Of a stretch of 64,000 nt of DNA, positions 43,611 through 63,186 are shown in pieces (position 1 is the stretch's first letter; the number at the start of each line of letters is the position of its first letter). The stretch is from NCBI GenBank assembly GCA_965216875.1, contig OZ244207.1, positions 544,001-608,000 on the forward strand. The letters are read 5' to 3'. Made by a program: the position numbers and the translations under genes. This DNA is from Rubripirellula sp. (lineage in GTDB: Bacteria > Planctomycetota > Planctomycetia > Pirellulales > Pirellulaceae). The notes beneath the pieces were generated by a model. The model had not been told where the DNA came from and made no database searches. It was given only the letters and a program-made list of their open reading frames with translations.

Positions 43611-44627
43611 TTGGCCGCTCGCTATGATGTCAGGAACAAGATTCCTGACGACGCGCGGATGAACCAGATGATGGGATTCCCTATACGGCCAATTGCGATC
43701 GCCACCCTGCTGGCCACCGTTTGCGCTGTTCCTTGCTTTGCGGACGAAGCCGATGAGGCTTCACTCAAGTCGACGGTCACCGAAACGAAGGCGGCTGACG
43801 CAAAGCCATCGAAGGCCGTCGTTGAGGTCACGGCCAAAAAGAACCAGCGGTTCAGCGATTCAGCCGGCAAAGCAGGTTTATGCGATATCTACTCTCCCGA
43901 TGGTGACGCTCCGCAGGGAGGGTTTCCCGTCGTGCTGGTTGTGCATGGCGGTGCATGGATCAGCGGCGACAAATGGACGCTCGAAGGATACTCGCGGCTA
44001 TTGGCAAGCCACGGGATCGTCGCGGTGACGATGAACTATCGACTCGCACCGGCGCACCCATTCCCGGCTCAGGCCGATGATGTGCGAGAGGCGTTGTTGT
44101 GGATCGTCGACCATGCGGGCGACCTGTCGGTCAATGTCGAAAAGCTGGGACTGTTTGGCTATTCGGCTGGCGGTCACTTATCAGCGCTGATCGCTGCGCT
44201 TGCCGACGAACCGGTCGAGATTCAGGCGGCCGCGAGCAATTGGAATGAAGAAGATGTACGCTGGGCGAAGCTGCCAGGTATCCGAGCGATTTGCGTGGGC
44301 GGACCGCCTTGCGATTTTCGCGAAGTGCCGATCGACAATCGAGCCTTTTCCTTTTTCCTTGGAGGATCACGACGCGAACGGCCTGACCTCTACGTCGCTG
44401 CATCGCCGACGGCGCACGTTTCGGCCGACGACCCCGTGACACAGATCATTCATGGTGAGACGGATGTGATGGTTCCAATCGCAGGCAGCCGCGCCTTCCA
44501 CGCGGCCCAACAAATGGCCGGAGTCGATACGCGGTTTAAGTTGATGCCAAAGCAAGGCCACATGGTGACCTTTCTGAATCCAAAAACGCGCCAAACCATG
44601 CTCGCGTTTTTCAAAGAAGTGCTCTAA
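43611..44627 (+). CDS. Alpha/beta hydrolase (esterase); true start probably ~43659-43671
   Basis: VHGGAW, GYSAGGHL, HGETDVMVP, GH. Confidence 0.88.
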   Translation: MAARYDVRNKIPDDARMNQMMGFPIRPIAIATLLATVCAVPCFADEADEASLKSTVTETKAADAKPSKAVVEVTAKKNQRFSDSAGKAGLCDIYSPDGDAPQGGFPVVLVVHGGAWISGDKWTLEGYSRLLASHGIVAVTMNYRLAPAHPFPAQADDVREALLWIVDHAGDLSVNVEKLGLFGYSAGGHLSALIAALADEPVEIQAAASNWNEEDVRWAKLPGIRAICVGGPPCDFREVPIDNRAFSFFLGGSRRERPDLYVAASPTAHVSADDPVTQIIHGETDVMVPIAGSRAFHAAQQMAGVDTRFKLMPKQGHMVTFLNPKTRQTMLAFFKEVL

Positions 44628-44664
44628 GCATTCCCTCTCCGAAGCGACGCTCGCCGGAGAGTTT

Positions 44665-44812
44665 GTAGTACCGAGCTTTAGCCGGAATCTTCCTGTCTCT
44701 TCCCCTAAAAACGGTACTGCGAACCCGTGAGCCGCACGCGCTAGCGTCGGGCCTCACAAGTAGGTCATGCTGTGCATGACACACGCGGGCTGTCATGCGG
44801 AGCATGACCTAC
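44665..44812. repeat. Cluster of three REP families
   Basis: GTAGTACCGAGCTTTAGCCGG; CGTGAGCCGCACGCGCTAGCGTCGGGCC; GTAGGTCATGCTGTGCATGAC...GTCATGCGGAGCATGACCTAC (related copies ~19560-19630 and ~37315-37335). Confidence 0.75.
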
Positions 44813-44993
44813 GGAAACACCGGCATTCCCCCACGTAGGCCGCATCAAGGAGCGACAGCGACGCAAATCCGGCATGGTTACTGAGAATCCCTTGTTGGCA
44901 ATGGGAGAAACCACTGTGGCGGAAGGCGTTGGTGGATTTGGTGAGCTAGACTCGACATGTCGCCCGGCTTTCTCGTTTGCTCGCAGGTCTCTC

Positions 44994-45566
44994 ATGAAGT
45001 GTTTGCTCGTTTGTTTGGTAGGGGTTGCGCTGTTTCTTAGCCCCGCCAACGCGGATGATTGGCATCCTGACGACGATACGTTTGATCCAAACATCACGTC
45101 CGTTGTGATCGGCGACCGCTCTTGGATCGGTGACCCTTCGCCGTTCTTGCACACGGGCACTCCACGAGTCGGTTACACCCACGTCAACGCGGTTGCATAC
45201 CAAGGGTTTGACCCGTCGGTTCAGATTTCATTGATGGTCCCGTTGGAGCCGGGTGAGAAGACTCCGCCTGCTGGCGGCATGATGATGCTGAACAAAGCTC
45301 AGGCATCGACACTGATCCAAGCGTTCGAAGCTGGTTTGAAAGCTGAGCCAAAGAACAAAGACCAGCGAATCAAAATCGAAACCGGCTTCAAAGAGGCTGA
45401 CTGGGCGTTGACGTTTGCTTCCGAAGATGGCCAACGTTTTCTTCAGCTCGAAAACAAGACCAAGGACAAAACGGACACTTACCGATTGACCCTCAATGCG
45501 ACAAAGAAACTGATCGGCGCGCTTCAGCACTCTTTGGAAAAGCTCGAAGCGAAAACCAAGCAGTAG
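44994..45566 (+). CDS. Hypothetical secreted protein
   Basis: Signal peptide MKCLLVCLVGVALFLSPANA. Confidence 0.72.
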   Translation: MKCLLVCLVGVALFLSPANADDWHPDDDTFDPNITSVVIGDRSWIGDPSPFLHTGTPRVGYTHVNAVAYQGFDPSVQISLMVPLEPGEKTPPAGGMMMLNKAQASTLIQAFEAGLKAEPKNKDQRIKIETGFKEADWALTFASEDGQRFLQLENKTKDKTDTYRLTLNATKKLIGALQHSLEKLEAKTKQ

Positions 45567-45745
45567 TTTCGATGCGCACAGCCGAACCGACGCGGCGTGC
45601 CGGTTCGTGAGTTTGTTGGCGGAATGCGATCCCCGGTGAGAAGGGACCTGAGGCGCGCTACGGGTGATGGCTGCCTTTTCACAGCCGCCAGCAGCACGCC
45701 TCGAGCCATTGACGTTGAAGTGTTCTCATTTCTGAGTTTCCAGCT

Positions 45746-46624
45746 TCACTCGTCGAACTTTAGACTTCCGTTGAGGTACAGTCGGGCGTTACCGTTCTGG
45801 GCGAGTTCACGAAGCGTTTCGAGTTCGGCCAGTCGCAGCAGGGCCGGGTGACCTTCCAGCGCCTCGGCTGCCTTGACGCGGAGAGCGTATGCTTGCGTTT
45901 CGGCTTCCGCCTTCGCTTGCGTCGCTTCTGCTTCGGCCTGCTCACGCAGTCGTCGTGCTTCGGCGTCCGCCTCAGCATCGCGCCGCGTGATTTCGGCTCG
46001 CGACTCCGCCTCGATCTGCTCGACTTCCGCTCGCGTTCGCGCTTCGACCAGTTGAGCCTGGCTGTGTCGCTCGGCTGCCAATACGCGGTTCATGATCTCC
46101 TGCAGGTTTCCTGGGAAGATCAAGTCCTTCACGTCGGCTCGCCGAATCGTCACGCCGTAGCTGCCAGCCGATTCCGTGACGTCCGAGAGGATATCTTCAC
46201 TCAGCCGGTTGCGGTTGGTCAGAATCTCCTCCAGCGTCATCGACGCCAGTGACCGTCGCGCGGCCAGCTGCACGTCGCTGTAAAGTCGGTCCTCGAAATT
46301 GTCGACCGTGTGGATCGCCGCCTTCGGGTCGGTCACGCGGAATTGAACGAGGATACTTACCCGAATCGCGACCTTGTCGGCCGTCAAGATTTCCTGCCCC
46401 TTAATCGTCAGCTCTCGCTCACGAACGTCGACCAGCATGCACTCGACGGTCGGCAGCTTCTTGAACCAACGCTTTCGCGGGGGAATCTTGTAGTGACCTG
46501 CTTCCAGGATTCTCGACAGCTTACCGTCTTCGTAGTACAAGCCGCGGTGAGTGTCCTTGATGATGAACTCGCGTCCTGCACCGGCAATCATAAGAGAAGG
46601 CATTGGGCTATCGACTTTGGGCAT
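45746..46624 (-). CDS. Slipin / SPFH (band 7) family protein
   Basis: VDVRERELTIKGQEILTADKVAIRV, DVKDLIFPG, PALLRLAELETL; start set at ATG 46624. Confidence 0.88.
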   Translation of the reverse strand: MPKVDSPMPSLMIAGAGREFIIKDTHRGLYYEDGKLSRILEAGHYKIPPRKRWFKKLPTVECMLVDVRERELTIKGQEILTADKVAIRVSILVQFRVTDPKAAIHTVDNFEDRLYSDVQLAARRSLASMTLEEILTNRNRLSEDILSDVTESAGSYGVTIRRADVKDLIFPGNLQEIMNRVLAAERHSQAQLVEARTRAEVEQIEAESRAEITRRDAEADAEARRLREQAEAEATQAKAEAETQAYALRVKAAEALEGHPALLRLAELETLRELAQNGNARLYLNGSLKFDE

Positions 46625-46752
46625 TGGGTACTCGGATGAATCGATCCTGTACTCGGTTGTGATGCAAGTTTGGTTGAGAGGATTTGTTCGCTTGAGTCTG
46701 GCGACCAAGCGTCTGAGGACCAAGCGTCTGAGGACCAAGTCTCGTGAACGGA

Positions 46753-46868
46753 GCCTCGGAGCGGAGCTGATCTGGAGTACGAGCTTTCAGATTTGGCAAG
46801 TCTGAGCGTTCATTCCGAAAGGTGAACGCAGCAACCATGTGGCCACTCGCTCCTAGCACCGCCGAGGC
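46753..46868 (-). ncRNA. Candidate ~116 nt structured RNA upstream of slipin
   Basis: Closing stem GCCUCGG/CCGAGGC, nested GGAG/CUCC and CGAGU/GCUCG helices, three internal hairpins. Confidence 0.45.
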
Positions 46869-47000
46869 ATTTTTGTTGATAGGCGTTTGGCTCTAGGCTT
46901 TAGGCTTTAGGCTTTAGGGAGAAGTTCGCAGGGTGAAGTGTGAAAAATCAGTGCGGGCGGTTTCTTTCACACTCCAAACTTCACCCTTCACAATTCAAAG

Positions 47001-47072
47001 TAGCTCGACCAGGATTCGAACCTGGAACACCTCGTTCGAAGCGAGACATGATGTCCGTTTCACCATCGAGCC
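47001..47072 (-). tRNA. tRNA-Arg(UCG)
   Basis: GGCTCGA/TCGAGCT acceptor, loop CTTCGAA, T-loop TTCGAAT. Confidence 0.85.
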
Positions 47073-47083
47073 GTGTTGCAGAG

Positions 47084-47170
47084 CGGAAGGCATGGGATTT
47101 GAACCCACATGACTCAGGAAGTCGCACGGTTTAGCAAACCGGCCCGGCAAGCCGTATCCGGCTACCTTCC
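47084..47170 (-). tRNA. tRNA-Ser(GCU)
   Basis: GGAAGGT/GCCTTCC, loop TTGCTAA, long variable arm, G73. Confidence 0.85.
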
Positions 47171-47180
47171 GAAACTTGAG

Positions 47181-47259
47181 TGGACCGCAAGGGAATCGAA
47201 CCCACAAACATGTAACGGAGGTTTGAGCTCCGCCGCTTTTCCGGTTTGCGTACCACGCC
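47181..47259 (-). pseudogene. Chimeric tRNA: 5' part Leu(CAA), 3' part from another tRNA
   Basis: Good D and anticodon arms (CGGAG CTCAAAC CTCCG), but 5' GGCGTGG does not pair with 3' GCGGTCC and the T-stem is mismatched. Confidence 0.65.
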
Positions 47260-47331
47260 GATCGTTGCCTTTCGCTCCGCGAAAGTAGCATTCAGTAACG
47301 TTGCTTTCGCGGAGCGAAAGACGACATTAAG

Positions 47332-47421
47332 CGTCCCCGATCGGATTTGAAGCGACAGGGACCTGCTTGGCTCTTGCGTAACAATGCCTGGCAAGCGAGC
47401 ACTCCGCTGCTCCACGAGAAC
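47332..47421 (-). pseudogene. Degenerate tRNA-Asp-like gene with disrupted anticodon/variable region
   Basis: Acceptor GTTCTCG/CGGGGAC-G and D arm intact; 13-nt anticodon loop, extra insert, broken T-stem. Confidence 0.6.
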
Positions 47422-47493
47422 TTTGGAAGTTTGAAGTTGGAAGGGGGAAGTGTGAAATTTCAAACTTCGAACTTCACCCTTTAAACTTCCGAG

Positions 47494-47567
47494 TAGCTCA
47501 GGTGGGACTCGAACCCACAGCATCTCTGGTTCTAAGCCAAAGTGGTCTACCAATTGCCTACCGAGCC
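47494..47567 (-). tRNA. tRNA-Leu(UAG), short variable loop
   Basis: GGCTCGG/CTGAGCT, loop CTTAGAA, GTGGG TTCGAGT CCCAC. Confidence 0.8.
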
Positions 47568-47584
47568 ATGTTGATTGAACGGAG

Positions 47585-47655
47585 TGGAGCGCCGGGGAAT
47601 CGAACCCCGATTTTCTGCGTGCAAAACAGATGTCTTCCCGTTGGACGAGCACCCC
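47585..47655 (-). tRNA. tRNA-Ala(UGC)
   Basis: GGGGTGC/GCGCTCC with G3:U70, loop TTTGCAC. Confidence 0.88.
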
Positions 47656-47744
47656 ATTTGAAGTTGGAAGTAAGAAGGGTGAAGTGTCAAAGAGGTTCGC
47701 GTTCCGTTTTCAACCTTTGCACTTCACCATTCAAACTTCTCAAG

Positions 47745-47835
47745 TGCCCAGGTCACGAGTCGAACCGGCAAACACTCGGACCCAGTATTCAAGGAATACT
47801 GGGCCGAGTCGCTCTGCCAGTTGGCGTAACTGGGC
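47745..47835 (-). pseudogene. tRNA-Leu-like gene with anticodon loop replaced by a 10-bp hairpin
   Basis: GCCCAG/CTGGGC-A acceptor and Leu-type D arm; CTCGG-[CCCAGTATTC CTT GAATACTGGG T]-CCGAG; T-stem mismatched. Confidence 0.65.
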
Positions 47836-47896
47836 GTCCGATGCTCACCGACCGATGCAAGTTTCTTGCACCGCCCGGCAAGCTGTTTTATAGCGA

Positions 47897-48163
47897 TCAT
47901 TTCAATCGCGGTTGGCTGTCGCCTGTTGCGTTGCGGTGATTGCGAATCGCTTTCCGATAGTCGGGAGTATCCGCGGCATCAACGACCTCATGGCCGACGC
48001 ACTCAACCACCCATCCATCAACCCAGCGATCGAGGTCGTCTTTCAGTTTCAGGACACGACCCAGCTTCGCAAACTGCTGAGGGATGTATGACGTTGTCTG
48101 CACCGAGCCACCGGCGACCGCACGTTTCATCGCACACTGCACGTATTTGACTTGTTTGGCCAT
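47897..48163 (-). CDS. Small hypothetical protein inside the tRNA array
   Basis: MAKQVKYVQCAMKR...TSYIPQQFAKLGRVLKLKD; GGAG RBS; co-oriented with tRNAs. Confidence 0.65.
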   Translation of the reverse strand: MAKQVKYVQCAMKRAVAGGSVQTTSYIPQQFAKLGRVLKLKDDLDRWVDGWVVECVGHEVVDAADTPDYRKAIRNHRNATGDSQPRLK

Positions 48164-48211
48164 CGTCATTCTCCAAGGTTGGCATGAAGCAGCGTCACCG
48201 TGACGCGTGAG

Positions 48212-48259
48212 TAGTCCTGGATGGAATCGAACCATCGTTTCCTGTTTGTAAGACAGGTG
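48212..48259 (-). pseudogene. 3' half of tRNA-Val(UAC)
   Basis: CCTGT CTTACAA ACAGG, GATGG TTCGATT CCATC, CAGGACT-A; D arm and 5' acceptor strand missing. Confidence 0.75.
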
Positions 48260-48262
48260 AAT

Positions 48263-48698
48263 GAAGTTTGAAGCGTGAAGTTCGAAGTTTGAAACGAAGT
48301 TCGGTAGATTGTTGGCATGAAAAGTGACTTGCCTGACCGGACATTTGCGTTTTCCGAGCGAATCGTGCGACTCTGTCTGGCACTGGAGGATGAAAGCGAT
48401 GTCGCTTCAACTCTGATGAGGCAATTGCTTCGGTCGGGTACATCTATCGGCGCGAATGTGGAGGAAGCTCAGGCAAGTGAAAGCAAGCGTGACTTCGTTC
48501 ACAAGTATTCGATTGCAGCTAAAGAGGCTCGCGAAACACATTACTGGCTGCGACTGCTAGCCAAGACCGAGGTCATTCCGCCATCTCGCCTTGAACCACT
48601 CACTGCTGAAGCCAACGAACTGGTCGCAATCCTGACGACAATCTGCAAGAAGAACCGGTGACAATCTTTCAAACTTCGAACTTCACCCTTCAAACATC
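48263..48698 (+). mobile_element. Heptamer inverted-repeat cassette carrying four-helix-bundle gene 1
   Basis: 32-bp IR 48263-48294 / 48667-48698 (30/32 match) around ORF 48317-48661. Confidence 0.6.
48317..48661 (+). CDS. Four-helix bundle protein (23S rRNA IVS protein/TIGR02436 family)
   Basis: DLPDRTFAF, QLLRSGTSIGANVEEA, SKRDFVHKYSIAAKEARETHYWLRLL. Confidence 0.92.
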   Translation: MKSDLPDRTFAFSERIVRLCLALEDESDVASTLMRQLLRSGTSIGANVEEAQASESKRDFVHKYSIAAKEARETHYWLRLLAKTEVIPPSRLEPLTAEANELVAILTTICKKNR

Positions 48699-48702
48699 CA
48701 AG

Positions 48703-48773
48703 CACGTCCCCAAGGATTTGAACCCTGACTTACTGGTTTGGAATCAGCAGTGCTACCGTTACACCAAGGACGC
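48703..48773 (-). tRNA. tRNA-Trp(CCA)
   Basis: GCGTCCT/GGGACGT-G, loop TTCCAAA, T-loop TTCAAAT. Confidence 0.8.
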
Positions 48774-48981
48774 GGGTAAAGTTTGAATTGAGAAGGGTGA
48801 AGTTAGAAGGCGAAGTATCTTCCGCTCATTTCACACTTCAAAATTCCTACGTCGAACTTCCAAGCGCCTCCCGTGTGGAAACGCTCCCAGAATAGGCTTT
48901 AGGTATTAGGTGATTAGACTCTAGGTAAAAGCTGCCTTCTTGCCTGCAGCCTAAACCGCTATGGTCTAAACACCTTCCAAG

Positions 48982-49026
48982 TGACGTGAGCGGGAATCGA
49001 ACCCGCGAACTCCTGGCTGAGAACCA
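48982..49026 (-). pseudogene. 3' half of tRNA-Glu(CUC)
   Basis: TGG TTCTCAG CCA, GCGGG TTCGATT CCCGC; 5' half replaced by a heptamer hairpin. Confidence 0.65.
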
Positions 49027-49131
49027 TAGTGAGACTTCAGGGATCAGGATTCAGACTTCAGAAGTGACCTATTGTCCGACCTGAAGCCTGAAGCCTGAAG
49101 CCTGAAGCCTGAAACCTGCAGCCTGAATCAG

Positions 49132-49203
49132 TACCGCATGGGAGTTTCGATCTCCCTCCTGCTGTTAGAAAGACAGCCGACCTAGCCAGTAGTCGAATGC
49201 GGC
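49132..49203 (-). tRNA. tRNA-Glu(UUC)
   Basis: GCCGCAT/ATGCGGT, GCTGT CTTTCTA ACAGC, atypical T-loop ATCGAAA. Confidence 0.75.
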
Positions 49204-49308
49204 GAAGAAAGGCTTTGGGCTCTAGACCATAGGAAAGACGATCAGGTTCGAGCTAGAGCCTAGAGCCTAGAGCCTAGAGCCTGAGGACTAAAGCCTGCGA
49301 AGCCGAAG

Positions 49309-49383
49309 CGCCGAGGACAGGAATCGAACCTGTGTTTGCCTGGTTCAGAGCCAGGTGCAACGACCAACAGTTGCCGCCTCGGT
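49309..49383 (-). tRNA. tRNA-Gln(CUG)
   Basis: CCGAGG/CCTCGG, CCTGG CTCTGAA CCAGG, ACAGG TTCGATT CCTGT. Confidence 0.8.
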
Positions 49384-49421
49384 GTACGGAAGTTTGAAGT
49401 CGGAAGTTCGAAGTTTGAAAG

Positions 49422-49493
49422 CACGGGTGGCAGGATTCGAACCTGCATACCACTGCTTCAAAGGCAGCTGGCTTACCGTTAGCCAACACCCGA
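49422..49493 (-). tRNA. tRNA-Gln(UUG)
   Basis: CGGGTG/CACCCG, loop CTTTGAA, GCAGG TTCGAAT CCTGC. Confidence 0.85.
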
Positions 49494-49548
49494 GTGTCTG
49501 CGTTGAACGTTTCAAACTTCTAGCTTCCCACTTCTAACTTCCGAAAGG

Positions 49549-49621
49549 CTCCGGCGGATGGGCTCGAACCATCAATCGTCTCCTTAACAGGGAGCCGCCC
49601 TACCGATTGGGCCACACCGGA
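49549..49621 (-). tRNA. tRNA-Asn(GUU)
   Basis: TCCGGTG/CGCCGGA-G, loop CTGTTAA. Confidence 0.87.
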
Positions 49622-49627
49622 GTATCA

Positions 49628-50048
49628 TCAGGCTTCAGGGATCAGGTTTCAGACTTCAGGATCTAGGGGCGAAGATGAGAGACTACAGAAAACTGCGTGC
49701 GTTCGAATTGGCGGATCAGCTTGCAATCGCTGTCTACAAGTGCACGTCATCTTTCCCGAAAGAGGAAATGTTCGGACTGACATCTCAACTTCGACGCGCC
49801 GCTGTCTCCGCACCATCCAACATCGTCGAAGGAAGTGCAAAGTCATCACAAGCTGACTATGTTCGATTCCTCGAAATCTCCTACGGCTCTGTTTGCGAGG
49901 TTGAATATCAGCTGTCACTCGCACAACGCCTGTCGTATCTCGATGAACAAACAGCAACGGAGGTGATCGGCGTCGCCAATGAAGCCGGACGAGTACTCAA
50001 CGGCCTTCTTCGCTCACTGAAGTCTGACTCCTGAAGCCTGAAGTCTGA
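49628..50048 (+). mobile_element. Heptamer inverted-repeat cassette carrying four-helix-bundle gene 2
   Basis: TCAGRCT-type IR 49628-49659 / 50017-50048 (27/32 match); right arm overlaps the gene's stop codon. Confidence 0.6.
49675..50034 (+). CDS. Four-helix bundle protein (23S rRNA IVS protein family)
   Basis: MRDYRKLRAF, FPKEEMFGLTSQLRRAAVSAPSNIVEG, FLEISYGSVCEVEYQL. Confidence 0.93.
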   Translation: MRDYRKLRAFELADQLAIAVYKCTSSFPKEEMFGLTSQLRRAAVSAPSNIVEGSAKSSQADYVRFLEISYGSVCEVEYQLSLAQRLSYLDEQTATEVIGVANEAGRVLNGLLRSLKSDS

Positions 50049-50051
50049 CCA

Positions 50052-50122
50052 AGCGCCCAGCGAGAATTGAACTCGCGTCTTCTGCATGGCAAGCAGATGG
50101 GTTACCACTACACCATGGGCGC
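50052..50122 (-). tRNA. tRNA-Gly(GCC)
   Basis: GCGCCCA/TGGGCGC-T, TCTGC TTGCCAT GCAGA. Confidence 0.88.
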
Positions 50123-50212
50123 AAAATGCATCACAACCAGATTGTCAAAGATCGGATCAGGCTTCAGGTCTCAGTCTTCAGACTTCAGTTTTCTTGCTGA
50201 AGTCTGACAAAG

Positions 50213-50283
50213 AGCACCGAGTCGGATTCGAACCGACGTCCCCTCGTTACGACGGAGGGATCTTCCCACTAGACGATCAGTGC
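50213..50283 (-). tRNA. tRNA-Thr(CGU)
   Basis: GCACTGA/TCGGTGC, loop GTCGTAA (31:39 mismatch), GTCGG TTCGAAT CCGAC. Confidence 0.72.
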
Positions 50284-50427
50284 TGGAGTCAGGTGTCAGG
50301 CTCCAGGCTCCAGGTTCCAGGTACTAGGCTTCAGGTTTGAGGTTTCTGTTCCTTGCTGAAGTCTGAAGTCTGAAGTCTGAAGTCTGAAGCCTGAAGCCTG
50401 AAGCCTGAAGCCTAAAGTCTGCCCAAG

Positions 50428-50500
50428 TGGGACCGGTGAGAATCGAACTCACATGAGTCGGTTTAAGAGACCGGTGCATTACCTTGTCTGCCACAATCCC
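50428..50500 (-). tRNA. tRNA-Lys(CUU)
   Basis: GGGATTG/CGGTCCC-A, loop CTCTTAA. Confidence 0.85.
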
Positions 50501-50531
50501 AAATTGTGTTTTTGTCGTTGATTCGTTTCAG

Positions 50532-50604
50532 TCGGCGTGGCGGGAATTGAACCCGCGACCGTCGCCTTATAAGGACGCCGCTCTCACCCCTGAGCTACAC
50601 GCCG
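50532..50604 (-). tRNA. tRNA-Ile(UAU)
   Basis: CGGCGTG/CACGCCG-A, canonical D arm, loop CTTATAA. Confidence 0.82.
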
Positions 50605-50616
50605 ATGTGTAGCAAG

Positions 50617-50637
50617 TGGGGCCGGAGAGATTCGAAC
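50617..50637 (-). pseudogene. Displaced 3' end of the split tRNA-Lys(UUU) (att junction)
   Basis: Minus strand GTTCGAATCTCTCCGGCCCCA completes the T-stem (GAGAG) and acceptor (GGGGTTG) of the 5' part at 62716-62773. Confidence 0.85.
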
Positions 50638-50676
50638 CTGTCTCGTTGCCAACGGAACTTCTCACTGACTCTGGAG

Positions 50677-50748
50677 TAGGATTGCAGGGACTCGAACCCC
50701 GACCCAACCGGTTAAAAGCCGGTGATGCTGCCGTAACACCTCAATCCC
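50677..50748 (-). tRNA. tRNA-Lys(UUU) carried by the element
   Basis: GGGATTG/CAATCCT-A, ACCGG CTTTTAA CCGGT, CGGGG TTCGAGT CCCTG. Confidence 0.85.
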
Positions 50749-50788
50749 AAATAAAAAACCCAGTGCCGTCGTGTGACACCGGGTTTTG
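50749..50788 (-). terminator. Intrinsic terminator-like hairpin immediately upstream of the element tRNA-Lys
   Basis: Minus strand AAAACCCGGTGTC-ACACGAC-GGCACTGGGTTTTTTATTT. Confidence 0.55.
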
Positions 50789-51086
50789 TTGTTTCCAGCA
50801 ACAAAACGCCAACGTCACCGACGAAGCGGATACCAATCCAATCCATTCGCACCGCAACTGCGGGCGAGCGAATCGCTATTCAGATTCTGTTGTGTCGATT
50901 GCATTGGTATTGACCGCTACTTCTCTCGGTTTAGTGATTTTCGTTTGTCGTCCAATCTCAGGCCGACGGAACAATAGACCAGCGAGCGAAAAGAAGGTTC
51001 GCGTCGCTGACAGGAATAGAGATGCTTGGGGCGATATGGTTATTTCACGGTTTTCTGAAAACCGGGCAAAGTCACTTGGTAGCTGC

Positions 51087-52061
51087 TCATTCAGCCTCAT
51101 CATTCGGATCGTAGTCCAGCGATTGGAGATTCATCCCTTCAAGCAATGGTCGCGGATACCAAGCAGCGATACCAAACGCGTTTCCGTCGGTGTCAAAGCA
51201 TCCAGGACCGCCTAGCTTGTAGCCTGACTCGAAGTCTGGGTCGGCTTCAAATCGGCTAAGTATCACCCCAAGAAAAAAAGGCATGTGGGGGACTTCCATG
51301 ATCCGAAGGTCGAATCGAAAACTAAACTCACCCTGAAACGGGAGTTCGCGTCGAAGGATGTAGTTGCCGTTTGTTGTCGTTGCCGACACCAACTCAGACA
51401 CGGGGAACATAAAGAATTCCAGATTGTATGCCGTTGACGTTGGCAACCCGGCATACAAGGGATGATGCCAGAGGTCACCGGGTCGAAACGTCTCAGCGTG
51501 TTTGCCTCCGCGTTCGACGAATTTATCAAGCCCTTGAAATATCAATCCGCAAAGCGGTCCAGAGGTGACGTTCACAGAAGTGGGGGCTTTCAGGCCAACA
51601 CCCCTTATTTGCTCAAGTTCCCGGTTGTACCCAGACACAATCGGTCGACCGGAACTCGAAAACTGAACAAAGCCGCCCATGTGAAGGCTTAGCTTGACCC
51701 GGTCGCTGACAGTAAAAGTGGCGGATTCGTGTAGCTTCTGTATCGACTGCTTCTGCGAATAGTCGTAGGGGATTCTTAGGACCAGTCCATCGGTTACCGG
51801 ATGATATGGGACAGACAAATGAAATCCGTCCCTCAAGAATCCGATACGCGCAATAAGCCGCTCACGACCGTCTTCGCCTTCAACGGCAACACGGTAGCCT
51901 TCCCCAATGTGCTTTCTCACTTTTCGAGAACTTTGACCGACCGCCTCTACAGCGCGGCGCAGGCGAGATTTGGATACTCCGATCGCACCCGCGTAATACT
52001 GCAAAAGCCAATCCTCATTGGGATCGATATTGTCTGGGATATCCGAAATGATCATGCGCAC
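51087..52061 (-). CDS. Hypothetical protein with N-terminal DUF3606-like domain
   Basis: IDPNEDWLLQYYAGAIGVSKSRLRRAVEAVG resembles DUF3606; the rest is unrecognised. Confidence 0.65.
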   Translation of the reverse strand: MRMIISDIPDNIDPNEDWLLQYYAGAIGVSKSRLRRAVEAVGQSSRKVRKHIGEGYRVAVEGEDGRERLIARIGFLRDGFHLSVPYHPVTDGLVLRIPYDYSQKQSIQKLHESATFTVSDRVKLSLHMGGFVQFSSSGRPIVSGYNRELEQIRGVGLKAPTSVNVTSGPLCGLIFQGLDKFVERGGKHAETFRPGDLWHHPLYAGLPTSTAYNLEFFMFPVSELVSATTTNGNYILRRELPFQGEFSFRFDLRIMEVPHMPFFLGVILSRFEADPDFESGYKLGGPGCFDTDGNAFGIAAWYPRPLLEGMNLQSLDYDPNDEAE

Positions 52062-52081
52062 GAACCAAATAACTCAGAGTA

Positions 52082-52672
52082 CTAGAGACCGACCATGCGA
52101 TTCCAGTCAGCAACATACATCTCGATCCGATGAAACTCACCAGGCAACAGCAGTCGGTTGTGAGCCATAAAGTTCCGGGCCTTTTCAAGCTCGTCAAATC
52201 GTTGCTTCAACCAATGCTGCGTCGGAATCAGGTCTGAGAAATCCTCCCAGTTGTTGAGGATGATGTCGGCAAGGTGTCCAAATTGCACGAATCCCAGAAC
52301 GTCACGCTTCTGGCCTTCGAGCCACGAGTTGGTGTTCGCGTCTTCCTGACGTGCTTCCGCAAACTCACGGATCTTCTTTGTCACCTTATTGTCCCACCAA
52401 TCATCTCCATACTGCTCTTGGAGGCGTTGCGTGATAAGGGATCGCACAGAATTCTCGAAGCAGTAGACCAAGGAATAGAGTCGTCCCATTTGTAACGCTT
52501 CATTGCGAAGGTCAATGCTAAAGGGATCCAGTGTTTCGTTGAGCAACGCGCGCTCGGATTCAGTCGTGTCGGCCCCAACACGGATGCCGGCAGATCGAAA
52601 GTGTTCCGCGTCCGCTTCGAACATCAGACCTCGAAACATCCAGTCCCTAACTTCCTTTCGTTCAATCTTCAA
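52082..52672 (-). CDS. Swt1-like HEPN domain protein (putative RNase)
   Basis: YCFENSVRSLI, YGDDWW, LEKARNFMAHN (Rx4H). Confidence 0.85.
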   Translation of the reverse strand: MKIERKEVRDWMFRGLMFEADAEHFRSAGIRVGADTTESERALLNETLDPFSIDLRNEALQMGRLYSLVYCFENSVRSLITQRLQEQYGDDWWDNKVTKKIREFAEARQEDANTNSWLEGQKRDVLGFVQFGHLADIILNNWEDFSDLIPTQHWLKQRFDELEKARNFMAHNRLLLPGEFHRIEMYVADWNRMVGL

Positions 52673-53297
52673 TTAAGTGCTCCTTCAGTGATTTAAAGAT
52701 GGCATTATAGACTTCGATATCTTTGGTAGGCGGAAGGTGTATTTCGATGTTGTATCGAAGTCCACCAAACGCCGGCATTTGAACTTGGCTTGTGTCCGCC
52801 TTTGCTTCCTTGTCTGGCGATTCCCCGCGGTCTTCAGTTCCTTGATTCTCATCACCCGTTGGTGCCCCATTTCGTCTTGCGGCATCAAGGTCTGCGAGGT
52901 CGAGCAAAGCAAAAAACGTTTTTGCTTGCTCTTTCGCGACCCTATCGGATGCGTTGTGAAATGACTTAAATTTTCCCTCAATCGAAGCGCGATCCGCTTC
53001 CGTAGGGTTCTCATTGACGTGGAACACCTCTTCGTACGCTTCGTGGAGTGCTTCTGCCATCACCTCACGTGATCGCGATTTGTCGCGGTAGTCATGGTAG
53101 CGCTGCGTTGGACTGCCATCGCCGGTCAAAAACCCGAGGTCCTTAAGCACAGGGATGATCCCCATGTCATTGCTGCTCTTGAAGCCAATCCCCTTGAGAT
53201 GTGCCTGGGAGAATTTCTCTGGCGCGGTACCCTCGATGATCTTTTGCATGATCGCGTGCAGGTTTTTGGTGCTGGTCATGTAGCGTGAAGTCAACAA
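52662..53297 (-). CDS. DUF5343-like protein
   Basis: PEKFSQAHLKGIGFKSSND, LGFLTGDGSPTQRY, C-terminal YNIEIHLPPTKDIEVYNAIFKSLKEHL; overlaps HEPN gene. Confidence 0.75.
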   Translation of the reverse strand: MLTSRYMTSTKNLHAIMQKIIEGTAPEKFSQAHLKGIGFKSSNDMGIIPVLKDLGFLTGDGSPTQRYHDYRDKSRSREVMAEALHEAYEEVFHVNENPTEADRASIEGKFKSFHNASDRVAKEQAKTFFALLDLADLDAARRNGAPTGDENQGTEDRGESPDKEAKADTSQVQMPAFGGLRYNIEIHLPPTKDIEVYNAIFKSLKEHLIED

Positions 53298-53576
53298 TTT
53301 GATCTCCCTTCTCGTTCTCGTGGTATGGAGGGATTGAATAACTATTCAGCGAGTACAGACCCAGTCTACATTTATCTGGTTCGCGCCCGCAATCGACCGC
53401 GTATGGCGGGAGATGGCCCGGATATCGACCACTCCCCGTCAATGGATTTAGAACGAGCGTCGATTCTAAATCGTCGGGTTAGGTAGCGGCGGCTGCCGTG
53501 ATGGATCGACGTTCGGCATTGGCTTTCTGCTGGGCGTCGATGCATCGGCCCATTCCCCAGCCGGAAAGCCATTCTG

Positions 53577-54953
53577 ATGATCGAAAACCCATTCTTGCGT
53601 GACATGGAATCCTATCTCTACACCGTAGGCTTTCCGCCGCCTGACTTCCTTGACTTCGCGGATGCGATGGTGCTGCCCAGAATCGACCTGCCTTTCAAGC
53701 AAGCCAGCAAGATCAAGGAAAAGCGATGGGAAGCGACCTGCTGCGCCCACAACCTGATCTACGCGGGGCTCGTCAATCGGACGGTTGCGGACTCCCGTGA
53801 TGGCAAAGGCAAATCACGAGCTCGCGTCTGGGACGCGATCATCAAGGCCGGATTCGCTGATAGATGTACTGGGAGCGAGCAATCCGGCAAAGTGACACGC
53901 TATTACCCTCGTGCCAAACTGCTGCGGCTTCGGAAGCAGTGGAAATTGGATTTGCTGATCGACCTTCAGCTAGAACGCAACACTGAACGTCCACACGATC
54001 CAACGAAGCAAGCGTTGGTCCTCCTGCATAGCAGCAAGGTCGATCCAGTCACAGGGCTGAAGTTGGACGAGTTGGATCAAAAGCAACCGCTGTCTTTTCA
54101 CGACTGGGCAAAGAACGAAGCCGGACCACGGGGGATGCAGAGCGGACTTGAGTACGTACAAGCGATGGAGGATCTGATCGAACGAATCAACCGATCCAAC
54201 CTGCGGCATTCCTGGCAGGCATTTCACGTCAATCCCATGAGCAGCAAGGAAACGGCATTTCAACCCAATTCATGTGTCAGACAGATTCACGTCGGTGAGA
54301 TGTTTCGGGGCACGCGACTCTACTCGTGGTCACTGCTGTCCGGCCAGAGCCTACCGAAAGAAGATCGCAAGCGAATGCTGATCGATGGCGAGCCGGTAGC
54401 CGAGTTTGACTATTCAGGTATGGCGACGCGGATGCTTTACCACCGAACACGTCTGAGAGGGCCCAAGGGCGACGTGTACAAGCCGGACGAATTGTTCCCA
54501 AGGTTTTACGCGTTCGAACCTAGCCCCGAAACGGCCGAGATCGTGCGTGAATTCGGGAAACGGGCCACGAACATCTGCTGGAACGTTTCCAGCCGAGCCA
54601 ATGCAAATTCGGCGATCAGCAAACTGATTACCGATCATCCCGATCGCGACCTGATCGAATCCGTTTTGAAATCGGAGGGGATGAAACGCACCGATGTCGT
54701 GACACGCATCCAAGCAGCCCATCCGAAACTGGCCGAGGATTTCTTTTCAGGAGTCGGAATCGAACTGATGACCGTTGACGGCAGCATTATGCTCCGCATT
54801 CTCGAAACGTTTGCCGACGCCGATAAGCCAGTGCTGGGCATTCACGATTCCATCGTGGTACGCGAATCAGACCGCAGGTTTGCCAGGCGAACGATGAAAG
54901 ACGCTTACCGCCGATTCATGCTTTTTGAGCCCGTGATCAAACGTGTCTATTAG
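53577..54953 (+). CDS. Stand-alone PolA-superfamily polymerase (TV-Pol-like)
   Basis: RLY...QSLPKEDRKRMLIDGEPVAEFDYS (motif A), LMTVDGSIM, VLGIHDSIVV (motif C); no exonuclease domains evident. Confidence 0.65.
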   Translation: MIENPFLRDMESYLYTVGFPPPDFLDFADAMVLPRIDLPFKQASKIKEKRWEATCCAHNLIYAGLVNRTVADSRDGKGKSRARVWDAIIKAGFADRCTGSEQSGKVTRYYPRAKLLRLRKQWKLDLLIDLQLERNTERPHDPTKQALVLLHSSKVDPVTGLKLDELDQKQPLSFHDWAKNEAGPRGMQSGLEYVQAMEDLIERINRSNLRHSWQAFHVNPMSSKETAFQPNSCVRQIHVGEMFRGTRLYSWSLLSGQSLPKEDRKRMLIDGEPVAEFDYSGMATRMLYHRTRLRGPKGDVYKPDELFPRFYAFEPSPETAEIVREFGKRATNICWNVSSRANANSAISKLITDHPDRDLIESVLKSEGMKRTDVVTRIQAAHPKLAEDFFSGVGIELMTVDGSIMLRILETFADADKPVLGIHDSIVVRESDRRFARRTMKDAYRRFMLFEPVIKRVY

Positions 54954-55472
54954 GGTCTTCGTAACTCGTTGCAAAAGCCCGAGTTACGAGTTTTTGGCGG
55001 GGTAATATAGGAATAGAAATCCCGAATAGAAAACCCAACCGCCCCCCGCCCCTCCCTCCGCCCTCCCCAAAGGAGGGCGGAAAGGGAGGAAGCGGAACGC
55101 GGAAACGGATGAATAAGAAACGAACCCAACGTTAGACGTGTTACGGTTGCACGGTAGACGTCATCAGCACGTGGCACGTCCTAGACGCTGTCGGAAGTCG
55201 TAGACCCAACGTCCTGCGTCGGTACGCCTTTTGGTGCCTTATTGGGCGTTCGTGCGTAAAAAAAGATGAACTTTTTTAAGTTGTGCCGCAGCAAGCGTTT
55301 GCGTCAACGCAATATGCGCAATTGACGCGTTTCTGAGCGCATCAACGTGTTTTTCTGGGCGCATAACTCAGGGTATCCAGCGATATAGATGTGCACGGGA
55401 TGATTCATCGTCGAATTGCCCATACACGAACTCGGATCGTGTAGAGCTCTACACGCTAAGACTGAGAGCATC

Positions 55473-56144
55473 ATGCCAAGGTATCGAACGCCCCATTGGA
55501 CCGACGGACGAATCGCGAAGCTGCATGGAAGTGCACTAACCAGACGGTTCGCCAATCTTGCCGAGGTCGCGAATAAGTACCACAGGATATGCGCTGAGAA
55601 TGAGCAGTCAGCTTTGGATTGCGCCAAAAAAGTAGGTGATGCTCTGACCGAGGCCAAGCGTCGGTGTGGTCATCGCAAGAAGTGGTCGAAGTGGCGCAGC
55701 GACAACTTCGCTGGATCAAAAGAGACTTCATGCCACTACATGCGAATCGCTCGTGAATGGAACAATCCCAAAATCCGCGAGGCGATGGCACGCGGTGAGA
55801 TCAAGAGTATCAACCAGTTTCTCGCGGTGCTTCGCAGAAAGGGAAATCCCAAATCGCAAACGACAGCGGAACAACGACACGTAATCAGGCTATTCACGAA
55901 ACTTGCCAAAGATCTGAACTGGGCCGACCAAAACCGTTTGGCAATGCATAGCACGGCCCAGGACGTAATGCCCAAATTGAGTGATTTTTTGCTAGAAGTA
56001 CTGAAGGGGTATCCAGTTCCACATCTGGTCGAGGTTTACCCAGGAGAGTACGAGATCAACTACTACGATGACGGCGATCAAGCTGAGGTGACCATGCCTC
56101 CTGGTATCAAACCACGCACCCAAAAAAGAGCCAAAAACCGGTAA
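55473..56144 (+). CDS. DUF3102-like phage/MGE DNA-binding protein
   Basis: ALDCAKKVGDALTEAKRRCGHRKKWSKW...SKETSCHYMRIA. Confidence 0.65.
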   Translation: MPRYRTPHWTDGRIAKLHGSALTRRFANLAEVANKYHRICAENEQSALDCAKKVGDALTEAKRRCGHRKKWSKWRSDNFAGSKETSCHYMRIAREWNNPKIREAMARGEIKSINQFLAVLRRKGNPKSQTTAEQRHVIRLFTKLAKDLNWADQNRLAMHSTAQDVMPKLSDFLLEVLKGYPVPHLVEVYPGEYEINYYDDGDQAEVTMPPGIKPRTQKRAKNR

Positions 56145-56208
56145 TGGCTAAGGCTACCTATCAGCCGGATTCCTTTTCCATGATTGGTCCTGTGTCTTGG
56201 AATGTGGA

Positions 56209-57279
56209 TCAGGAGTTCTGATAAACTGCACGGCCAACCTTCAGCACATCGCGGCGATAGTCGCGATCCCACCTTGAAAAGCGCTCCATAGTTCTTTCGT
56301 CTTGGTGTGCAGCGAGAACAAGAACAGCACACCAATGGTCGACATCACCCATCGCATGTTTATGTGAATCAGCGAACATCTCGAAAACTTCTTTTGCGCG
56401 AGGCACGGATTTTCTCAATACCGCGTCCAACTCGCCGAGGGTCGAGATTTCGGTTGCTTTGCACGCTGCAAGCAGATCTTCAGAGTCAGGCTGGGCTCTT
56501 GCCGCTTTGAGCTTACTCTTGGACACCGCGTCCATAACATCACGCACAATGCTCGCTTCTTCGCAGTACTGCTCGATCGAAATCGCGTTAATTTCAATCT
56601 TCAGTGTTTTGTCCGCCAACTGCTCGGACACTTCCTTAGCAAGTGATTCTTGCTGCGCCTTTAAGCTCGTAAACTCGTCGTCGGCTAACTCAAACAACCC
56701 TGCAAGTCTCATGAGACGTCGCCGAAACTTGGATGGAACGTCAGATTCGCGCTTGTATTGCAAATGATGGGAAATTGCCGCCCATGCGTGCTGAAGAACT
56801 GTCCTTACCTGAATTTCGCACACCAATCCCACGAACGCATCCCATTCTGGCAACTTCGCCCGAGCATCGTTGAGCGATACGACTAGGTGGACGGACAGAT
56901 ACCCAAACTGATCTGCATCCAATTCCGACGATTTATCAATGCTGCGTGCGTCATCAACCTCGAACTCGTTCCGCAGAATCTTGGTAACTTCATCTACGTC
57001 CTCTTGGTAGTACAGAATCACGCGAGCGCCTGCGAGGTCGGGCAACTCATCAAGCGGGTTCGTGTAGGATTTGCCGGGTCGCTGAATCTTTTCCGCAAAA
57101 CTCTCAATACTCTTTGCACGTGATTCAGTGGTGTGGTGCGGGATCGAGTGTTTCTTTATCAGTTGGAGAATCAGCAATTCGATGCGGCGAGCAAATTCTT
57201 GAATTCGAGGTTGCATCATGCCATAGTCGGCGACCAATTGATCATGATCCGTTGCATTTCTCCGGCGTTTTTTTCCCAT
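56209..57279 (-). CDS. RelA/SpoT-domain (small alarmone synthetase-like) protein
   Basis: SRAKSIESFAEK, DLAGARVI, GYLSVHLVV, EIQVRTVLQHAWAAISHHLQYK. Confidence 0.88.
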   Translation of the reverse strand: MGKKRRRNATDHDQLVADYGMMQPRIQEFARRIELLILQLIKKHSIPHHTTESRAKSIESFAEKIQRPGKSYTNPLDELPDLAGARVILYYQEDVDEVTKILRNEFEVDDARSIDKSSELDADQFGYLSVHLVVSLNDARAKLPEWDAFVGLVCEIQVRTVLQHAWAAISHHLQYKRESDVPSKFRRRLMRLAGLFELADDEFTSLKAQQESLAKEVSEQLADKTLKIEINAISIEQYCEEASIVRDVMDAVSKSKLKAARAQPDSEDLLAACKATEISTLGELDAVLRKSVPRAKEVFEMFADSHKHAMGDVDHWCAVLVLAAHQDERTMERFSRWDRDYRRDVLKVGRAVYQNS

Positions 57280-57698
57280 AGATCCTTTGCTCAACAAGAG
57301 ACTGCAGTTAGGCCCACGGCGGGGATACCAATACTTGTTCCGCTGATGGTCGTAATGTAACAGGGTGCGGCTATAGATGCGAAAGCGCTACGCTGGGGTA
57401 GGGATCGCAGTGGCTCAGTATCAGTATCCGGCAGCGGCACCGCATTCCGCACCGTGATTCACGGGGTCAGCGTCATCCGTGATCCGCTCACGACGATCTA
57501 TAGATGAAACTGGCCATCGGTTCGGAGCTGCGCTAGAAAACGGGTCCAGGTACGCGAGAGATATTCGCGGCCAACGGGAGCGACGCCTAACGCTTTGCCT
57601 TCCGTATTCGCCCGAAGCGTCGCATAGGAAATGCAAACGCCGTAGAGCGCGATTTAGAACGCCTACGCGACGTGTTCTCCAACGAAAGGAGCCAACCG

Positions 57699-58322
57699 AT
57701 GCCGAAACAGAAACCCGTTGCGATCTATGCCCGTGTCAGCTCGCAGAAGCAGGACACCGCCAGCCAGTTGCCGGACCTGAAACGCTGGGCCGATGCCCAA
57801 GACGCGGACGTGCTGTGGTTCGAGGACGAAGTTAGCGGCACGACGATGGACCGACCGCAATGGTCTGAGGTCGCCAAGCTGATTAGCGCTCGAAGGATCT
57901 CAGCCGTTGTTGTTTGGCGGTTGGATCGTCTTGGACGTAACGTCAGCGGGCTTTCCAGTTTGTTCGATGAGATGCGGGCCAAGGGCGTTGATCTGGTCAG
58001 CCTGAAAGACGGTCTGACGTTATCGACGCCAGCCGGACGATTGATGGCTAACGTCCTCGCCAGCGTTGCACAGTTTGAAACGGAGATCAGAGCCGAGCGC
58101 GTGTTGGCTGGTCAGGCGAAGGCGAAAGCGAACGGCAAGACGTGGGGCGGAAGCAAGCCAGGTGTGCGGAAGAAAGTAACGCAGGAACAGATCGATGCGA
58201 TTGAGATGCTGTACGACGAGGAGATGTCTACTGCCGCCATCGCACGAACGGTGAAGCTCGGACGAAACACCGTAGCCAGCGTTATTCGCGAGATTCGAGA
58301 AAACTCCCCTTTTCGTAAATGA
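57699..58322 (+). CDS. Small serine resolvase/invertase with C-terminal HTH
   Basis: IYARVSS, VWRLDRLGRN, TPAGRLMANVLASVAQFE. Confidence 0.92.
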   Translation: MPKQKPVAIYARVSSQKQDTASQLPDLKRWADAQDADVLWFEDEVSGTTMDRPQWSEVAKLISARRISAVVVWRLDRLGRNVSGLSSLFDEMRAKGVDLVSLKDGLTLSTPAGRLMANVLASVAQFETEIRAERVLAGQAKAKANGKTWGGSKPGVRKKVTQEQIDAIEMLYDEEMSTAAIARTVKLGRNTVASVIREIRENSPFRK

Positions 58323-58362
58323 ATGGTGGTTGGCGGCCTGATGCTTGTCATACGTTCCGCGT

Positions 58363-60137: not shown

Positions 60138-60146
60138 GAGCATGGA

Positions 60147-62739: not shown

Positions 62740-62773
62740 AAGTCCGTCATGCTGCCAGTTACACCACAACCCC
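62696..62773 (-). pseudogene. 5' part of host tRNA-Lys(UUU) fused to an element-derived 3' end
   Basis: GGGGTTG...ACGGA CTTTTAA TCCGT...GAGAG TTCGACT, then TACTCGCAGT CGGCCCC-A. Confidence 0.8.
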
Positions 62774-63137: not shown

Positions 63138-63186
63138 ATCGTCGACTTCTGACGCCTGATACCTGAAGCCTGAAGTCTGTATAAAT

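Follow-up and report, generated by a model that had tools for sequence, protein, structure and literature searches.

The DNA described here is a 64,000-nt window of a Rubripirellula sp. genome (positions 544,001 to 608,000 of contig OZ244207.1; the genome is called G000 below), in which two genes for four-helix-bundle proteins of the family PF05635 stand between tRNA genes. Each gene occupies the loop of a cassette that is closed by two inverted arrays of 4-5 heptamers sharing the core T-C-A-G-K-N-G. All three genes of this family in the genome, and most of the hairpins that carry such heptamers around no gene, reside between the genes of redundant tRNA arrays, on an island that also carries phage and recombinase genes. 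Wrapping by heptamer arms is a property of the gene family across phyla and not of the tRNA setting, arms and gene are gained or lost as one unit, and such arrays are found almost only in genomes that carry the gene. The element is an intervening sequence (IVS)-type cassette outside rRNA, accompanied by a population of gene-less hairpins. On balance, we consider it probable that IVS-type cassettes and their gene-less derivatives are tolerated in RNA operons and that a pentameric protein reads the repeats.

The two cassettes of the window consist of the following features, with positions in window numbering unless marked C1, the contig of G000.

48211-48257, - strand: truncated tRNA-Val(tac) with its 3' two-thirds remaining; agrees at 45/47 positions with nt 1-47 (+ strand text) of the 73-nt Val(tac) in array 2
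48263-48294, no strand: left arm of cassette 1, 4-5 GAAGTTN-type units, 30/32 against the right arm
48317-48661, + strand: gene 1, four-helix-bundle protein of 114 aa (PF05635 E 3.2e-21; TIGR02436 E 8.2e-27)
48667-48698, no strand: right arm of cassette 1, stopping 3 nt short of tRNA-Trp (48702-48773)
49628-49659, no strand: left arm of cassette 2, 5 TCAGRNT-type units, beginning 6 nt past tRNA-Asn (49547-49621)
49675-50034, + strand: gene 2, four-helix-bundle protein of 119 aa (PF05635 E 6.7e-34; TIGR02436 E 4.1e-33)
50017-50048, no strand: right arm of cassette 2, stopping 3 nt short of tRNA-Gly (50052-50122)

The arms are 32 nt each and are 94% complementary in cassette 1 (30/32) and 84% complementary in cassette 2 (27/32). 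An earlier, sequence-only reading had claimed brackets of GAAGTTN type around gene 1 and of TCAGRCT type around gene 2, and they lie where it placed them. The arms fill the tRNA-tRNA spacers, leaving 3-6 nt to the mature tRNA ends, and the right arm of cassette 2 also codes for the final six codons of gene 2. In both the minimum-free-energy and the centroid folds of the tRNA-sense RNA, the arms of the two cassettes pair (z -3.8 and -3.0). Genes 1 and 2 are on the + strand, antisense to all 16 window tRNAs (16/16 on the - strand), as that reading had also stated; its description of gene 2 as divergent is apt for the sequence (20% identity to gene 1, with the family motif Q..R...S...N..E kept in both) and wrong for the orientation, the two genes being co-oriented. 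Cassette 1 has taken the place of the 17-23-nt spacer between Val and Trp together with 26 nt at the 5' end of tRNA-Val(tac). The third and last PF05635 gene of the genome (C1:629035) is likewise antisense within a tRNA array and has a GTTAGCN-type inverted array around it (cassette 3), and all three genes fall within ~9.7 kb of tRNA-array DNA. A TAGGCTT-flanked paralogue, for which the sequence-only reading had proposed a search, is absent from the genome.

Wrapping was scored as the best ungapped inverted repeat between ~160 nt upstream and ~140 nt downstream of a gene, a score of at least 13 counting as wrapped. Control open reading frames (ORFs) of this genome reached that score in 0/300 cases at 100-160 aa and 2/300 at 300-700 aa, none of them with period 7. 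Within the same order (40 relatives), 20/31 analysable genes are wrapped, two of the 20 being the window's own genes, and one more gene was excluded because it lies near a contig end. Across phyla the count is 53/79 (80 loci, one with a flank too short), drawn from Planctomycetota, Hydrogenedentota, Nitrospirota, Desulfobacterota, Acidobacteriota, Verrucomicrobiota, Chloroflexota, Firmicutes, Bacteroidota, Omnitrophota and Gammaproteobacteria. Pooled, and with slightly wider windows, 74/111 relatives from more than 10 phyla are wrapped, and only 5/110 scanned foreign loci are in tRNA arrays. Of the 74 wrapped genes, 56 have a best period of 7 and 4 have one of 8, the remaining 14 being unclear; the arms have a median length of 31 nt (interquartile range 25-35), 24 cases counting 4 units and 20 counting 5, and at the medians the first arm stops 42 nt ahead of the protein match and the second begins 10 nt past the stop codon. 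In protein-coding surroundings the gene is co-oriented with both neighbours at 47/71 loci and opposed to both at 6, whereas at nine distinct tRNA-array sites it runs antisense in 8 cases and in the sense direction in the remaining one, a contrast that is suggestive only because all nine sites lie in related arrays of one bacterial family.

The units themselves are conserved. In a common register, 56 consensus heptamers share the core, with A3 in 48/56, G4 in 54/56 and K5 in 53/56, and the core holds 4.57 bits of information vs 2.99 +/- 0.09 in shuffled units. Within the stems this constraint recurs with the period of the repeat: the two arms disagree at G4 in 1.1% of cells, vs 17-18% for positions 6-7 (chi-square p 5e-10). 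Of the 72 cassettes with non-zero skew, 59 have a G-rich 5' arm and 13 a C-rich one, and since the arms are inverted this applies to both strands. As a separate matter, we dropped a three-frame stop mechanism: the heptamer unit of the 3' arm holds a stop trinucleotide in 24/56 cases vs 13.2 +/- 2.9 expected, which is under half, and the excess is due to the TCA core.

The clearest view of gain and loss comes from the site of cassette 3, where G002, of the same genus, has neither arms nor gene and 14 nt in place of ~480; on the left, the alignment with G002 stops 3 nt short of the arm, and on the right it reaches the arm's end exactly. At the site of gene 2, between tRNA-Asn and tRNA-Gly(gcc), an orthologue is present in G006 and in a metagenome-assembled genome of the Pirellulaceae (L031), G016 has 44 nt, and the compact arrays of G000 and G002 have tRNA-Pro(cgg). 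The gene-less hairpins are also insertions relative to the 11-12-nt spacers of relatives: where G000 has the 143-nt hairpin insert between tRNA-Thr and tRNA-Lys, G002 has 12 nt and environmental contigs have 11 nt. The filled and empty polymorphism that had been proposed as a check is seen at cassette 3, against a genome of the same genus. Cassettes can displace tRNA genes, Val(tac) being truncated and Pro(cgg) missing where gene 2 sits, and in the tRNA arrays filled as well as empty sites occur naturally in a single genome.

Eleven gene-less inverted repeats of the cassette heptamer kinds stand in the tRNA spacers of the window. They are given here together with a direct array that adjoins one of them.

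46880-46918, no strand: direct TAGGCTT array of 5.6 units, preceding the next hairpin
46916-46987, no strand: gene-less hairpin, GAAGTTN type, arms 46916-46937 and 46966-46987 (18/22)
47425-47490, no strand: gene-less loopless hairpin, GAAGTTN type, right arm (47458-47489) 94-97% identical to the cassette 1 arms
47667-47739, no strand: gene-less hairpin, GAAGTTN type (17/20)
48779-48794 and 48830-48845, no strand: degenerate hairpin (81%)
48908-48924 and 48959-48975, no strand: degenerate hairpin, TAGGCTT-like (82%)
49036-49113, no strand: gene-less hairpin, TCAGRCT type (22/26), left arm (49035-49061) sharing 96% identity along 27 nt with the left arm of cassette 2
49210-49282, no strand: gene-less hairpin (19/24) of the minor type CTAGAGC, which lies at 49253-49282
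49387-49420 and 49510-49543, no strand: GAAGTTN-type arm pair (34 nt, 88%) around tRNA-Gln(ttg) (49421-49493)
50157-50207, no strand: gene-less hairpin, TCAGRCT type, core 11/11, loop 8
50297-50421, no strand: gene-less hairpin, TCAGRCT type, at the Thr/Lys site, 50-nt arms (70%); 11-12-nt spacer in relatives
62959-63045, no strand: gene-less hairpin, TCAGRCT type, in the third small tRNA array (27/34)

Gene-less hairpins between the tRNAs were thus found as the sequence-only reading had described them, apart from the pair at 49387-49543, which encloses a tRNA. Its third repeat family, TAGGCTT, exists as hairpins, but in register it reads TTAGGCT, one base from the TCAGGCT of gene 2. Each of the three gene types in G000 has gene-less hairpins with near-identical arms, and arms at different sites have an irregular unit order in common at 91-97% identity. 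Because this order is shared, arms at different sites are copies of one another and not independent products of slippage, and the earlier notion of full and empty forms holds in that they share arm sequence beyond the bare repeat. A search with Rfam at E <= 0.01 across 44000-64000 returned tRNAs only.

Related repeats were observed elsewhere. Two long CAGGCTT/CCTGAAG hairpins with up to 11 perfect units lie outside the island (C1:3566809-3566985 and 5685459-5685585); both are intergenic and each adjoins a terminator-like hairpin. G006 (L123:6109-6237) has a one-sided direct array of ~14 CTTTAGC units between tRNA-Pro and tRNA-Ala with no inverted partner, and G020 has a likewise one-sided run of 26 CAGGGAG units. 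The palindrome of ~66 nt at window 47261-47328 (38-nt arms, 76%) is a member of a separate dispersed repeat family, with 111 BLAST pieces genome-wide, or roughly 55 copies counted on both strands.

The partnership of gene and repeat was examined with a strict array pattern of four YAGK cores at period 7, whose hits in G000 form 6 clusters, all of them true arrays. Among 150 Planctomycetota genomes at least 90% complete, 43/79 gene-positive vs 0/71 gene-negative genomes have at least 4 array hits, and 50/79 vs 3/71 have at least 2. In the 13 taxonomic families with both kinds of genome, the gene-positive members have the higher mean of hits in 9 and the lower mean in 1, with ties in the other 3. 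The 41 near relatives give at least 2 hits in 24/27 gene-positive vs 3/14 gene-negative genomes, one of these exceptions being G005 with 4 hits. Hits are far more numerous than the flanks of the genes can supply, with 203 hits for 2 genes in G071 and 231 hits for 6 genes in G183. Heptamers diverge with the proteins: the distance (of 7) is 0.8 at >=70% protein identity, 2.4 at 55-70% and 3.8 below 45%. Heptamer type follows protein relatedness in a Mantel test (r = -0.36, p = 0.0005), although such co-divergence would also be expected from inheritance as a unit, by shared descent alone and without recognition. The dominant gene-less family matches resident gene flanks in G183 (1/3 genes examined) and G052 (2/10).

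Both proteins belong firmly to their family, with PF05635 bit scores of 76 for gene 1 and 116.8 for gene 2 (cut-off 33.8) and bit scores of 93.6 and 113.9 for TIGR02436, 'four helix bundle protein' (cut-off 24). To our knowledge, two crystal structures exist for the very large PF05635/TIGR02436 family, and no function is known for it. The structures 2GSC and 2RLD each contain 5 chains of one sequence, and a further relative, Xcc0516, is reportedly pentameric. A domain search with genes 1 and 2 gave PF05635 plus weak bAvd/VWA_CoxE matches only, and no recognisable catalytic, nuclease or recombinase domain. The gene 2 protein had no match at E <= 1e-5 among 50,697 phage records. PF05635/TIGR02436 is present in 80/151 sampled genomes of Planctomycetota. 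The available text of PMC3936711 gives the family motif as G/QxxRxxxSxxxNxxE, and Q38, R41, S45, N49 and E52 are invariant across 15 aligned sequences, genes 1 and 2 included. Homology to Avd, the accessory protein of diversity-generating retroelements (DGRs), is apparent from phrog_3206 (E 2.6e-9) and NF033474 (E 7.7e-7). Avd is described as a four-helix-bundle pentamer in the accessible part of PMC6182149, and in the DGR Avd particle all five protomers touch one RNA stem-loop via the same residues, according to the accessible part of bioRxiv 10.1101/2023.10.23.563531.

The genome is one 8.26-Mb contig with 99 tRNA genes, and the tRNA arrays that house the cassettes are redundant in it: the 48 genes of the three arrays (C1 591-633 kb, all on the - strand) duplicate the other 51, which are dispersed. 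Array 1 (window 46.8-50.8 kb) has 14 tRNA genes in 3749 nt on the - strand. It is a decayed co-linear paralogue of the compact array 2, which holds 31 tRNAs in 4623 nt with mostly 5-25-nt spacers and has Pro(cgg), Gly(tcc), Glu(ctc), Asp, His and others that array 1 is without. By GC skew, replication starts near 6.22 Mb and ends near 2.10 Mb, so that the arrays are head-on to replication and the four-helix-bundle genes co-directional with it. We also observed that all 48 array tRNAs (C1:591000-632638) are on the lagging strand, an uncommon arrangement for tRNA genes and one in keeping with a recent foreign origin. In array 2 of G000, cassette 3 is bordered on both sides (L125:2894-2970 and 3425-3498) by sequences that are tRNA-like by eye, with CAT anticodon loops; they are uncalled by ARAGORN and conserved in G002.

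The region between the arrays (51087-62739) looks like a mobile-element island. It encodes a DUF3606-headed protein, HEPN_Swt1, DUF5343, a RelA_SpoT-domain protein, a resolvase and a large terminase subunit (phrog_2, E 3.6e-24), and its large serine recombinase overlaps the start of tRNA-Lys (62699-62772). Within this island, defence-like genes of a tRNA-targeting kind adjoin the spare tRNAs. Two further observations concern other parts of the region. A 90-aa ORF inside the array (window 47897-48169, - strand) has no Pfam or NCBIfam match and a weak match to phrog_25356 (E 3.5e-4), and it is covered by a contig from a relative's RNA library with 30 differences in 342 nt. The ~650 nt at 63180-63830 have no ORF of at least 150 aa and no Rfam match and are unique in the genome; they are flanked by a weak tRNA (63066-63136, 32.8 bits) and a repeat arm.

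Based on these results, we propose that the cassettes are tolerated in RNA operons in the following manner. The arms would pair in the tRNA precursor, or in any transcript crossing them, into a stem of ~32 bp, and RNase III, whose gene is present in the genome, may cut this stem by analogy with the IVS of 23S rRNA. Such cutting would make the insertion harmless to maturation of the flanking tRNAs, and rRNA and tRNA spacers would therefore be safe landing sites. The protein, a pentamer in solved relatives, may bind the stem with about one protomer per heptamer, reading the nearly invariant A-G, by analogy with Avd. Binding could help arrays to spread or persist, and the gene-less hairpins would therefore depend in trans on a resident gene, in the manner of repetitive extragenic palindromic (REP) sequences and their REP-associated tyrosine transposases (RAYTs), although without strict matching of type.

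Several observations count against this proposal. Arms are absent in 37/111 family members. Two fragmented assemblies have arrays without the gene (G007, 140 hits in 430 contigs; G018, 21 hits in 780 contigs), two gene-rich genomes have no core arrays (G105 and G168, 18 gene matches and 0 hits each), and the co-occurrence p-values overstate the support because the genomes of a group are related to one another. In neither G020 nor G071 does the dominant gene-less family (CAGGGAG and CAGTGRG, respectively) match the flanks of a resident gene. A scan for sigma-70-like promoters gave 1 site vs 2.0 expected and none upstream of gene 1 or 2, and the tRNA precursor cannot serve as their mRNA because the genes are antisense to the tRNAs. 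Arm mismatches include 60 of G:U type vs 70 of A:C type and carry no RNA-strand signature, which speaks against an RNA-only role. At the one clean filled/empty junction (cassette 3, G000 vs G002) there is no target-site duplication. Overall, the dependence of arrays on the gene seems real, whereas strict cognacy does not. The pattern like that of RAYT and REP, which the sequence-only reading had suggested, accordingly holds insofar as arrays are nearly confined to gene carriers and outnumber genes, and breaks down at strict cognate pairing in G020 and G071; the interpretation given there is partly supported, and the observation on which it was built is confirmed.

A bolder form of the proposal, which we put forward only tentatively and would not expect to hold in full, is that PF05635 pentamers are the missing partner of bacterial heptamer repeats at large, each protomer taking one 7-nt unit via the invariant A-G. 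Through this binding hairpin arrays would spread and persist, gene and repeat forming a two-component selfish system, and one mechanism would account for the 23S rRNA IVS, the repeats of Xanthomonas, Nostoc and Geobacter, and the hairpins of tRNA arrays. Heptamer repeats, rRNA IVS and PF05635 are old and separate puzzles that the present data tie together. The proposal predicts a pentamer on a stem of 4-5 heptamers, a contact to the invariant A-G and arrays that depend on the gene, and if the protein reads a programmable 7-nt word, use as a tool may be possible.

Other explanations attach the hairpins to the host or to a different chemistry. The hairpins could belong to the host as processing or terminator structures of tRNA arrays, in which the four-helix-bundle genes merely landed with no functional tie. 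The 11 gene-less places in the window would suit this explanation, as would the arm pair that encloses a tRNA like an rRNA processing stem, the two hairpins elsewhere in the genome that adjoin terminators and the array families of G020 and G071 that have no matching gene. We nevertheless think it quite unlikely, given that wrapping is found in 74/111 genes with only 5/110 foreign loci in tRNA arrays, that arms appear and disappear together with the gene, that the compact sister array works without hairpins at 5-25-nt spacers, and that arrays are nearly absent from gene-negative genomes. An analogue of RAYT and REP acting on DNA, in which the protein is a strictly cognate mobilising enzyme on single-stranded DNA hairpins and produces empties like those of MITEs (miniature inverted-repeat transposable elements), is unlikely. 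It draws on the near-identical arms of gene-less hairpins for all three gene types of G000, on the excess of arrays over genes in G071 (203 hits for 2) and G183 (231 for 6), on the match between dominant families and resident flanks in G183 and G052, and on genes that run with replication while the tRNAs run head-on. Against this stand a helical bundle of 114-119 aa without a nuclease or recombinase domain, the lack of a target-site duplication, the failure of strict matching in G020 and G071, and TAGGCTT and CTAGAGC hairpins for which G000 has no exactly matching gene.

It is very unlikely, in our view, that polymerase slippage makes the arrays and template switching mirrors them, the gene being associated by hitch-hiking. 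Slippage has been proposed for bacterial heptamer repeats, as quoted in the accessible part of PMC4692102, and it would agree with copy numbers from 3 to 13 units, with direct arrays of up to 26 units, and with mismatches of which half are transitions with no strand bias; however, an A-G core across phyla with position-specific constraint is not expected from slippage, irregular unit order is copied between sites, and co-occurrence with the gene is strong. Finally, the arrays could be by-products of a retroelement, with an Avd-like protein and a reverse transcriptase acting in trans and reiterated copying of a short template. The homology to DGR Avd (phrog_3206, NF033474) and the G-rich 5' arm on both strands (59/72 cassettes with non-zero skew) would be in keeping with this. 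We find this hardly credible in a genome whose single reverse transcriptase gene (C1:4677460) is 4 Mb away and in which no reverse transcriptase, template repeat or variable repeat is near any cassette.

Among known systems, REP sequences and RAYTs come close to the IVS-type cassettes in arrangement. A RAYT is an HUH/Y1 transposase (IS200/IS605-like), and a REP is a single imperfect palindrome. As in that system, inverted copies of a short repeat stand on both sides of the gene, further copies are dispersed on their own, and the repeats far outnumber the genes and are absent where the gene is absent. Here, in contrast, the protein is a small helical bundle with no evident transposition chemistry, the repeat is a tandem array of 7-mers, and type matching is loose: clade and repeat go together in G000, G183 and G052 but not for the dominant families of G020 and G071. 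The MITE-like empties of the sequence-only reading resemble MITEs in their inverted arms and not in the filled/empty junction, where a target-site duplication is lacking.

As for the setting, tRNA array units are defined by at least 20 tRNA genes at at least 2/kb (PMC4758250, accessible part). Array 2 is such a unit by this definition, array 1 reaches the density but falls short of 20 genes, and the opening of the abstract of that paper does not mention cassettes or heptamer hairpins in array spacers. The protein points to DGR Avd, a homologous four-helix-bundle protein that, like the solved relatives, is a pentamer, with five protomers on one RNA stem-loop. Unlike a DGR, the cassettes have no reverse transcriptase, template repeat or variable repeat nearby, and the Avd stem is 11 bp without a heptamer periodicity described in the accessible part of bioRxiv 10.1101/2023.10.23.563531.

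Heptamer repeats have been reported in several bacteria. The accessible text of PMC4692102 describes GGGAATC repeats in Xanthomonas (70-75 convergent pairs) and GGGGAYT heptamers in Nostoc, and that of PMC2700814 describes paired hepta- and octanucleotide 'global regulator sites' in Geobacter metallireducens; its Table S4 places paired sites between ordinary genes and leaves the PF05635 family unnamed. Like the arrays described here, these are intergenic tandem 7-mers of variable copy number, often in inverted pairs on opposite strands, and, placed in a common register, the Xanthomonas unit TCGGGAA and the Geobacter 'class 3' unit MTYCTGA (reverse complement TCAGRAK) resemble the core. The accessible parts of the two papers differ from our account in naming no protein partner and in proposing G-quadruplexes or binding of IHF/HU proteins. 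Our literature search, which had subscription journals mostly outside its coverage, found no paper that ties heptamer arrays to the PF05635 family as a rule.

The nearest precedent is the IVS in helix 45 of the 23S rRNA of Coxiella burnetii, as described in the accessible part of PMC4990558, which does not present its repeats as a family-wide rule. That IVS carries an S23p ORF and a 28-bp stem of terminal repeats, and the ORF is preceded by tandem heptamers (GACAGAT), the first of which is where RNase III cuts. The cassettes described here differ in lying in tRNA-tRNA spacers, with all three copies outside 23S rRNA, in an ORF that is antisense to the host RNA, and in the gene-less hairpin copies alongside; cleavage by RNase III was shown there, whereas here it is only proposed. 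In both, an ORF of the same family lies in the loop of a terminal-inverted-repeat stem (28 bp there, 32 bp here), tandem heptamers stand on the 5' side, with GACAGAT fitting T-C-A-G-K-N-G, and the host is a stable-RNA operon.

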